Virus record (IMG/VR): IMGVR_UViG_2671180884_000022
Direction: 5' to 3' (one strand)
DNA length: 30,131 bases
Origin: a virus
Taxonomy: Duplodnaviria; Heunggongvirae; Uroviricota; Caudoviricetes
Shown: positions 11,151 to 12,191 of the stretch, one piece after another
Layout of the letters: each line of letters begins with the position of its first letter
Numbering within the stretch: the first letter of the stretch is position 1
Notes under the pieces: generated by a model
Database searches by the model: none
The model's input: only the letters and a program-made list of their open reading frames with translations
Told to the model about the DNA's origin: nothing
Position numbers and translations under genes: made by a program

Positions 11151-11858
11151 TCAAATAGCTAAAGCACTCATCGTGTTGCCCGTATTCATACCCGTGTGAC
11201 TTTGACAACGGTACTCCTTAGAAACTCTCTTCGGACTGTTGCCGAAATGTTTGCGGAACGCATAAATAAAATAAGATGTACTGGCATAACCACATTGTTC
11301 GGCAATTTTATTGACTGAACCTTCTACGCGTATCAAATTTTTTGCGTGCTGCATTCTGGCATCTAATAGAATCTGTGAGAATGTCGTTTGCTCTTGCTTT
11401 AGTTTTTTCTTCAACAGGCTTTCACTGATGTACAGGCAGTCACAAATATCTTTCAGCTTCCATGGGTGCGCCAGCTTCATGTTGACAATATTTCTCACTT
11501 TTCCGGAAACGGATAGCACACCGTTAGTTAATAGTGTAATGAAACCTTTGCATGCGGCAAAAATAGACAGGCAAGAAAAAAGCAAAAGTTCTGAAAAATT
11601 ATGATGATTGCGTTCTTCCGAGTTGAGATAAGCAATCATTTCATTAAGCAATCCAGTCGGTACATTTGAAGCACGTAAAAACTTCGCAGGAACAGGCACC
11701 GTCACTGTCTGGATGTTAGTGCATTGTAGATTATTCATGTCAAACATGGCAATAACATCCTGGCGTATATCCATCTGCTTACGTACTGCATTCGCTACGG
11801 ATTTGACAGCACCCCAACCACCTGCAGCACCCTGGTAGGATTCAATTTTTTTCTTCAT
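11151..11858 (-). CDS. ydeO: AraC-family regulator: C-terminal ~190 aa of YdeO preceded by a ~43-aa N-terminal segment resembling the YdeP oxidoreductase N-terminus (apparent in-frame fusion)
   Basis: 235-aa ORF with ATG at 11858 preceded by AGGA. The C-terminal part carries an AraC-type dual HTH (…[29 protein letters not shown]…) and matches my recollection of YdeO from …[17 protein letters not shown] onward. The first ~43 residues ([42 protein letters not shown]) instead match what I recall as the YdeP N-terminus. Confidence 0.8.
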
Positions 11859-12101
11859 CTACTTATCCTGTGTGGAAATGAATTATTAGGATTTGTAATA
11901 GCGATGATGCACAGTACATACAAAGGGATTATCGCCAACATGGATATATAAGAGTAGGGGACTACTCTCTTTCTATTTTTAATCTATTATCGTTAAACAA
12001 TAGATTAAATACGATAAGTTAAGCATCATCTCTCATAGTGTTTAAATTAACATATTTTTCAATATAAAAAATAAGACTCTGGCTTCAATTGTGCGCGGAT
12101 T

Positions 12102-12119
12102 TTCTTACAGGTGTAGGCT
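12102..12119. promoter_or_regulatory. EvgA-box-like inverted repeat
   Basis: TTCTTACA-GG-TGTAGGCT matches the EvgA consensus TTCPyTACA-N2-TGTAPuGAA at 16 of 18 positions, about 250 bp upstream of the fusion ORF start. Confidence 0.45.
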
Positions 12120-12191
12120 AATAGCCTTCACAAAATAATTATCCGCGCAATTTTCGTGAATGGAGCGCATAGACTAAGGTCAAAATCACAA

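Follow-up and report, generated by a model that had tools for sequence, protein, structure and literature searches.

An in-frame ydeP'-'ydeO chimera in a sublineage of Escherichia coli O91:H14: product of a 2,853-bp deletion and probable remnant of a lost acid-resistance branch

When a single deletion joins the beginning of one gene in frame to the end of another, behind a promoter that has survived unharmed, has a new regulator been made or has a pathway been lost? This question is raised by a stretch of 30,131 nucleotides (nt) held as IMG/VR virus record IMGVR_UViG_2671180884_000022 and referred to here, at its full length, as the window. Its gene order (gadB, pqqL, yddBA, ydeM, ydeN, ydeO and its surroundings, the ydeQRS-usher fimbrial operon, hipAB) is that of the E. 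coli chromosome, and at the ydeO locus an open reading frame (ORF) of 235 amino acids (aa) combines the N-terminus of the oxidoreductase YdeP with the C-terminal part of the AraC-type regulator YdeO. The explanation favored here, to which a probability of about 0.77 is assigned, is a lineage-specific loss of the acid-resistance branch leading from EvgS through EvgA to YdeO, to SafA and on to PhoQ, and to YdeP, with the in-frame ORF a by-product of the deletion. The elements of the chimeric gene are as follows.

11151..11858, minus strand: chimeric ydeP'-'ydeO ORF, 235 aa and stop (from the ORF listing, alignments to K-12 and to O91:H14 strain S19-141, and residue comparison)
11732..11858, minus strand: ydeP-derived 5' part, codons 1-42 and the first base of hybrid codon 43 (from alignment and profile)
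11731..11731, no strand assigned: deletion junction, a single base common to both flanks (from ungapped comparison with K-12 and S19-141)
11151..11730, minus strand: ydeO-derived 3' part, comprising the last base of codon 43, YdeO codons 62-253 and the stop (identical to S19-141 ydeO)

Residue-by-residue comparison establishes the composite nature of this ORF. Residues 1-42 are those of YdeP 1-42 in both K-12 and S19-141, with no difference, and 127 of the 128 nt of the ydeP-derived part, shared base 11731 included, are those of K-12 ydeP. Residues 44-235 correspond to YdeO 62-253, running from Leu62 to Ile253, and differ from S19-141 YdeO at no position and from K-12 YdeO by two substitutions only. 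Between the two parts, residue 43 is an Asn specified by a hybrid codon (coding strand ...GAC ATG AAT AA/T CTA CAA TGC..., the slash marking the join), its counterparts being Lys43 in YdeP and Tyr61 in YdeO. The initial annotation had proposed precisely such a fusion, with about 43 residues of YdeP placed in frame upon a YdeO lacking its first 60 or so; the number of YdeO residues lost is 61, and the first 42 residues, being derived from YdeP, are not the native N-terminus of a YdeO homolog.

Comparison with the K-12 locus defines how the fusion arose. When positions 10750-12300 of the window were aligned to K-12 using BLAST, two blocks were recovered: a left block extending from ydeN and ending within ydeO (98.6% identity), and a right block of 570 nt beginning within the 5' portion of ydeP and extending to ydeQ (99.8% identity), the sole mismatch of which falls in the coding part. 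As in K-12, where ydeN, ydeO, safA, ydeP and ydeQ lie in this order on one strand, the locus sits between ydeN and ydeQ; unlike K-12, the window is without 2,853 bp, and the remaining gene ends are joined in frame. The same 2,853 bp are missing relative to S19-141 in an ungapped comparison. Lost with this DNA are ydeO codons 1-61, the safA-ydeO promoter together with its EvgA box, the 65-codon safA gene encoding the PhoQ connector, and ydeP codons 44-759, which amount to 94% of that gene. No match to this material was found elsewhere in the window, either by blastn with the deleted segment or by tblastn with SafA, YdeP 44-759 and YdeO 1-61, so that the suggestion of a deletion of approximately 3 kb removing safA and most of ydeP is borne out, and neither gene persists intact at another position in the window.

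The two flanks share only 1 nt of microhomology, base 11731 (T on the plus strand, A on the minus strand). An apparent 5-bp microhomology was considered and rejected, as the 5-nt overlap between the BLAST blocks is an artefact of gapped extension and ungapped comparison yields 1 nt; deletion mediated by an insertion sequence (IS) was rejected as well, since neither ancestral breakpoint carries an IS or a longer repeat. The arrangement arose when illegitimate recombination, in one event and with 1 nt of microhomology, joined ydeO codon 61 to ydeP codon 43. It was by chance (1-in-3) that the frame was preserved, and a 235-aa ORF was left behind a promoter, a ribosome-binding site and a start codon inherited intact from ydeP. 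Deletions in the ydeO region seem to recur, because other rare in-frame chimeras involving ydeO exist in the protein database: one usher'-'ydeO, two different ydeQ'-'ydeO and one ydeO'-'ydeN fusion, each on 1-5 contigs. IS1 is also found within ydeO, beside it, or between ydeO and ydeP in unrelated E. coli strains, so that the locus seems to have been inactivated more than once, independently.

The lineage specificity of the junction was examined across 5,426 complete E. coli genomes. Three of these (2012EL-2448, 2015C-3121 and 2018-166) carry it at 100% identity over 1,551 bp, and a fourth, STEC2018-553, carries it together with an extra internal deletion, giving a total of four carriers. The deleted DNA, by comparison, is present at a coverage of at least 80% in 5,318 of the 5,426 genomes, and only 42 contain none of it. 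All four carriers possess the O91 wzy gene and the H14 fliC allele and are thus O91:H14. In 2012EL-2448, typing rests on O91 wzx and wzy in the annotation of the NCBI Prokaryotic Genome Annotation Pipeline (PGAP) and on a fliC central region that matches the one in an O18ac:H14 strain at 100% identity; stx2b was read in this one carrier. Intersection of the O91 wzy matches (27 genomes) with the H14 fliC matches defined a set of 11 complete O91:H14 genomes, seven of which are without the junction (S19-141, S19-651, STEC17-183, STEC2018-607, STEC435, JNEC-KY179 and JNEC-KY208). Beyond the complete genomes, the exact 235-aa protein is found on 945 contigs of a protein collection (1,323 index blocks), and five draft loci that were read back contain the same chimeric gene.

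In S19-141 the ydeP-safA-ydeO locus is undeleted, and its flanks are almost those of the window, with one mismatch over 11.7 kb to one side and eight over 12.3 kb to the other. Comparison with this strain gives the same breakpoints and the same gap of 2,853 bp as comparison with K-12. The deletion therefore took place recently, within O91:H14, and belongs to one sublineage. A literature search returned no description of this deletion, and no link of O91:H14 to acid resistance, to evgS or to loss of EvgS or YdeO.

The same distribution disposes of a technical explanation, namely that the junction is an assembly error or that the ORF is a divergent YdeO homolog with its own native N-terminus. 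A repeat-mediated join does exist elsewhere in the window (after ~24042), and nothing was found at the junction itself to favor an error there. The identical junction occurs in at least five draft assemblies as well as in four complete genomes that are independent of one another; no repeat is present there; residues 1-42 and the 333 bp preceding their codons match ydeP and its promoter without a difference; and S19-141 retains the undeleted arrangement. An assembly artefact was rejected on these grounds, and the probability left to this explanation as a whole is negligible; it is already refuted.

What remains of YdeO in the chimera is its DNA-binding half. The NCBIfam YdeO profile (NF007407, an equivalog model) returns 455.9 bits, above its curated cut-off of 348, and of the 253 positions of the profile only 60-253 are covered, so that the protein falls short of full-length YdeO and its N-terminal regulatory domain is gone. 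The NCBIfam YdeP profile (NF007406, a molybdopterin oxidoreductase) matches at positions 1-57 only, with 80.9 bits, far under its cut-off of 1473 bits. Pfam analysis identifies HTH_18 (PF12833) at residues 139-213 (3.9e-16) as well as HTH_AraC (PF00165; 1.6e-16), and the double helix-turn-helix (HTH) is intact. In the PGAP annotation the chimera is a ydeO pseudogene, "incomplete; missing N-terminus."

The missing portion can be placed on an AlphaFold (AF2) model of full-length YdeO (mean predicted local distance difference test score, or pLDDT, 78.8), in which β-strands are predicted at residues 3-10, 14-18, 21-25, 30-34, 48-54 and 78-81, helices at 35-47 and 55-64 followed by three more over 86-132, and a DNA-binding domain from about residue 135. 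A Foldseek search with this model found CsvR, Rns and ToxT over its whole length (E about 1e-12); for its C-terminal domain the match was the DNA-binding domain of GadX (TM score 0.9). In Rns, the N-terminal domain is cupin-like, with six strands and four helices; it binds a fatty-acid ligand, and its helices form the dimer interface (PMC8329261). By this comparison, the chimera is predicted to have lost five of the six β-strands and two helices of an Rns/ToxT-like N-terminal domain. Thus, like these two-domain AraC/XylS activators, which the YdeO model resembles end to end, the chimera retains the double HTH and the helices preceding it; unlike them, it is without five of the six cupin-like strands and has 43 unrelated oxidoreductase residues in their place. 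A model of the chimera built from the same alignment as that of YdeO has pLDDT values below 50 for residues 1-114 and ten-residue block means of 85-94 over 121-210, and a folded product, if made, would likely be the DNA-binding domain preceded by a disordered N-terminal stretch.

The second line of evidence for loss of the pathway comes from evgS, whose product is the kinase cognate to EvgA. The status of evgS was read in the four complete carriers, and that of the strain from which the window derives, which is not among them, is extrapolated from theirs. In 2012EL-2448, evgS consists of nt 1-514, an IS1 of 768 bp and nt 1264-3594, with evgA intact; a query spanning the left evgS–IS1 junction matches in a single piece at 100% only in 2012EL-2448, 2015C-3121 and 2018-166. 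In STEC2018-553, evgS consists of nt 1-487, IS1 and nt 505-3594. The kinase that activates EvgA is broken: each of the four complete carriers of the fusion has its evgS disrupted by an IS1, and none encodes a functional EvgS kinase in the same genome. With the left junction at nt 514 in three genomes and the right junction at nt 505 in the fourth, the two configurations may go back to a single insertion of IS1 in a common ancestor, which duplicated 10 bp of target (505-514) and was later flanked by deletions, on one side of the element in the three genomes and on the other side in the fourth; two independent IS1 insertions are the alternative. S19-141, which has kept the ydeO locus, possesses full-length evgS and yfdE. 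The yfdE gene, situated beside evgS, is split by IS3 in 2012EL-2448 and annotated as incomplete in STEC2018-553.

Erosion is also visible at the chimera itself. STEC2018-553 has lost a further 313 bp from the ydeO part of the fusion, equivalent to positions 11233..11545 of the window, with a resulting frameshift; the same strain carries an IS1 in ydeQ. Two draft carriers have additional deletions in the fimbrial operon, equivalent to 12714..16412 (GCA_016450725.1) and 12606..14142 (GCA_012772415.1), which take the 5' part of ydeQ, ydeR, ydeS and parts of the usher gene and leave the ydeP promoter in place.

Other acid-resistance genes are spared in the one carrier examined, 2012EL-2448, whose acid fitness island carries an annotation as intact (slp, dctR, hdeBAD, gadE, mdtEF, gadW, gadX, gadA), as does gadB. 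In the explanation favored here, the lesions would jointly dismantle the EvgS branch, while the glutamate decarboxylase machinery and GadE, GadX and GadW stay intact, as read in this one carrier. The chimera itself would be a remnant, without function or nearly silent: its N-terminal domain, of Rns/ToxT type, is predicted to have lost its β-sheet core, and the promoter in front of the ORF is expected to depend upon phosphorylated EvgA, the cognate kinase gene being interrupted in every complete carrier. Pathway loss is preferred in view of the broken kinase gene, the missing regulatory domain, the continuing erosion of both loci and the pseudogene call by PGAP; the chimera is, moreover, truncated, restricted to one lineage and further disrupted in a relative. 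In previous work, deletion of evgS, evgA, ydeO or ydeP abolished survival at pH 2.5 after adaptation at pH 5.5 in the absence of glutamate, and glutamate restored survival (PMC11210196). The phenotype predicted for the carriers is loss of mild-acid-induced, exponential-phase survival of extreme acid without glutamate, whereas stationary-phase glutamate-dependent resistance would be kept.

The opposing possibility is that the fusion has rewired the circuit, and its appeal lies in what the deletion left upstream of the ORF.

11859..12191, minus strand: retained ydeP upstream region (promoter and 5' leader), 333 bp, identical to K-12 base for base (from alignment)
12102..12119, no strand assigned: EvgA-box-like 18-bp inverted repeat, AGCCTACAccTGTAAGAA on the minus strand, with two mismatches to TTCYTACAnnTGTARGAA, which is reportedly the EvgA consensus; the only match in the window

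The gap between the ORF and ydeQ is 333 bp, the length it has in K-12, in agreement with the earlier estimate of about 330 bp to the fimbrial adhesin gene, a distance that leaves no room for safA or ydeP. The EvgA-box-like repeat, predicted as a box by its pattern and likewise anticipated to have been retained, is the same site, without a difference, as that upstream of K-12 ydeP. Its significance derives from this identity with the K-12 ydeP promoter site and not from the number of matches in the window, where the single occurrence is not above chance (0.30 expected; at least one in 25 of 100 shuffles). In the 13-kb K-12 locus the pattern occurs three times, a number reached in none of 200 shuffles, and two of the three matches lie upstream of safA and upstream of ydeP, the former falling in the deleted DNA. 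The safA and ydeP promoters have been described as activated by EvgA (PMC11210196; PMC4283999). [quoted passage not shown]

A further promoter-like sequence was noted at the junction: the best σ70-like match of the region (11723..11752, minus strand; TTGCCA, 18-nt spacer, TACAAT; 10 of 12 positions) straddles it, with a ydeP-derived -35 and a ydeO-derived -10 element. If this sequence were active, transcription would begin within the ORF, upstream of the codon matching YdeO Met92; it is a consensus match only, from a scan in which sites were fewer than in shuffled sequence, and is not used as evidence.

In the rewired circuit, a YdeO without its N-terminal domain would be produced from the EvgA- and H-NS-controlled ydeP promoter and would bind YdeO targets such as gadE, shortening the cascade and evading both autoregulation by YdeO and the control that CsrA exerts on the ydeO leader. 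Residual function of this kind is possible from the sequence because the frame, the promoter and the DNA-binding domain have survived. The ydeP promoter, EvgA-box-like site, ribosome-binding site and ATG are all intact, the HTH_18/HTH_AraC domain is intact and confidently modeled, counterparts of the Rns dimer-interface helices are kept, and the ORF is uninterrupted on 945 contigs. The isolated C-terminal domains of some AraC/XylS proteins are, furthermore, partly active alone. Regulatory observations point in the same direction: CsrA binds the ydeO leader and spares that of ydeP (PMC11210196), the ydeP promoter region is bound, and the promoter also controlled, by H-NS (PMC2984483), and phosphorylation of EvgA independent of EvgS has been suggested (PMC11210196).

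Rewiring is nonetheless judged unlikely. The ydeP promoter is very low in activity without activated EvgA (PMC4283999), and none of the four complete carriers has an undisrupted evgS; most of the N-terminal β-sheet is lost and the first 114 residues of the chimera are modeled with low confidence; one carrier has a secondary frameshifting deletion; and an in-frame outcome has a one-in-three chance of arising from any such event, other rare in-frame ydeO fusions being known. With only the DNA-binding domain modeled confidently, and with the PGAP pseudogene call, the proposal of the initial annotation that EvgA-to-YdeO signaling could be rewired is not supported. More improbable still is its fullest form, a working regulatory-domain-less YdeO sustained by residual phosphorylated EvgA, by relief from H-NS or by another input, which would hard-wire gadE activation to a different signal. 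Were it true, the locus would offer a natural case in which exchange of promoter and N-terminus made a new regulator in a globally common clone of Shiga toxin-producing E. coli (STEC), O91:H14.

A DNA-binding domain kept and a regulatory domain predicted to be lost might also yield a decoy, in which low-level chimera occupies YdeO- or GadX-type sites without activating and so dampens acid resistance system 2 (AR2) as a dominant negative. The same difficulty of expression, a broken evgS, confronts this idea, as does the secondary decay in one carrier, and the decoy would have nothing to be dominant over because full-length YdeO is absent; it is accordingly regarded as very improbable.

Several observations weigh against the loss of the EvgS branch as set out above. 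Firstly, the chimeric ORF is uninterrupted and its exact protein is found on 945 contigs, which is no sign of selection because the clone is too young. Secondly, the two HTH motifs, the three preceding helices, the ydeP promoter, the ribosome-binding site and the ATG are intact, and some expression and DNA binding may therewith be possible. Thirdly, some phosphorylated EvgA may form without EvgS, as has been suggested (PMC11210196). Additionally, the state of evgS comes from four complete genomes and not from the window's own strain, and the truncated 172-aa EvgS product is found on 346 contigs as against 945 for the chimera, a comparison confounded by the omission of pseudogene products by PGAP and by the breaking of contigs at IS1.

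Loss of EvgS signaling in a single lineage has precedents. Enteroaggregative E. coli (EAEC) 042 is without evgAS, and NA114 has an in-frame deletion in evgS and is without ydeO, gadX and gadA (Johnson et al., 2014; PMC4283999). The O91:H14 carriers resemble these strains in that the EvgS/EvgA input to AR2 has been inactivated in a lineage-specific manner in human-associated E. coli, with more than one component hit. They differ in the nature of the lesions, which in STEC O91:H14 are an IS1 insertion in evgS and a ydeO'-safA-'ydeP deletion leaving a chimeric ORF, and in the intactness of evgA and of the gadE/X/W/A island, as seen in the one carrier examined. The chimera also has much in common with the chimeric pseudogenes that intergenic deletions produce in young pathogen clones: one deletion, two co-oriented genes, one clone, a pseudogene annotation and further erosion in relatives. 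What distinguishes it is that the frame was kept and that a complete inducible promoter and a complete DNA-binding domain survive. The deletion is a new instance of a known process, the decay of a regulatory branch in one lineage, and represents ordinary gene loss and not a new mechanism.

The low infectious dose of STEC is thought to rest on acid resistance. Within this group, the O91:H14 sublineage (approximately 1,000 contigs) constitutes an apparent natural multiple knockout of evgS, ydeO, safA and ydeP in which the core glutamate decarboxylase system is kept. Carriers and locus-retaining O91:H14 strains such as S19-141 provide an isogenic-like comparison for the part played by the EvgS branch in human infection and in survival in food, and the deletion junction is a clean marker of the sublineage for the polymerase chain reaction or for in silico typing.

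Three features adjoin the chimeric gene and its promoter.

12192..13106, minus strand: ydeQ, FimH-like fimbrial adhesin, upstream neighbor, outside the deletion (ORF; WP_000520676.1, the same protein in K-12)
11081..11103, minus strand: terminator-like hairpin 3' of the ORF, at the native ydeO 3' end (from a pattern scan only)
9067..10749, minus strand: ydeN, sulfatase, downstream neighbor, outside the deletion (ORF; WP_001295684.1)

Elsewhere in the window, positions 14225..18599 contain intact genes for a fimbrial usher (871-883 aa), a chaperone and a fimA-like major subunit, so that this lineage has a complete ydeQRS-type chaperone-usher operon; in K-12 the usher gene, ydeT, is a pseudogene by annotation, without its N-terminus. 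A frameshifted fragment of a gene for an HTH-domain protein (~18984..19192), annotated as a remnant, lies between the fimA-like gene and hipA. Positions 22777..30131 include an IS3 (~22790-24042), and from this IS3 rightward the window is 100% identical to a prophage region with genes for an S49 peptidase, capsid and tail proteins and with its own copy of IS3. In complete O91:H14 genomes this prophage region is situated about 1.09 Mb away from the ydeO region, which is matched there by window positions 1..24042. The join after ~24042 would reflect either IS3–IS3 recombination in the source strain, with a large inversion or deletion, or an assembly chimera at the repeat. At about 21296..22792, an autotransporter gene of the ECSE_1600 family, likewise annotated as a remnant, is split by IS3.

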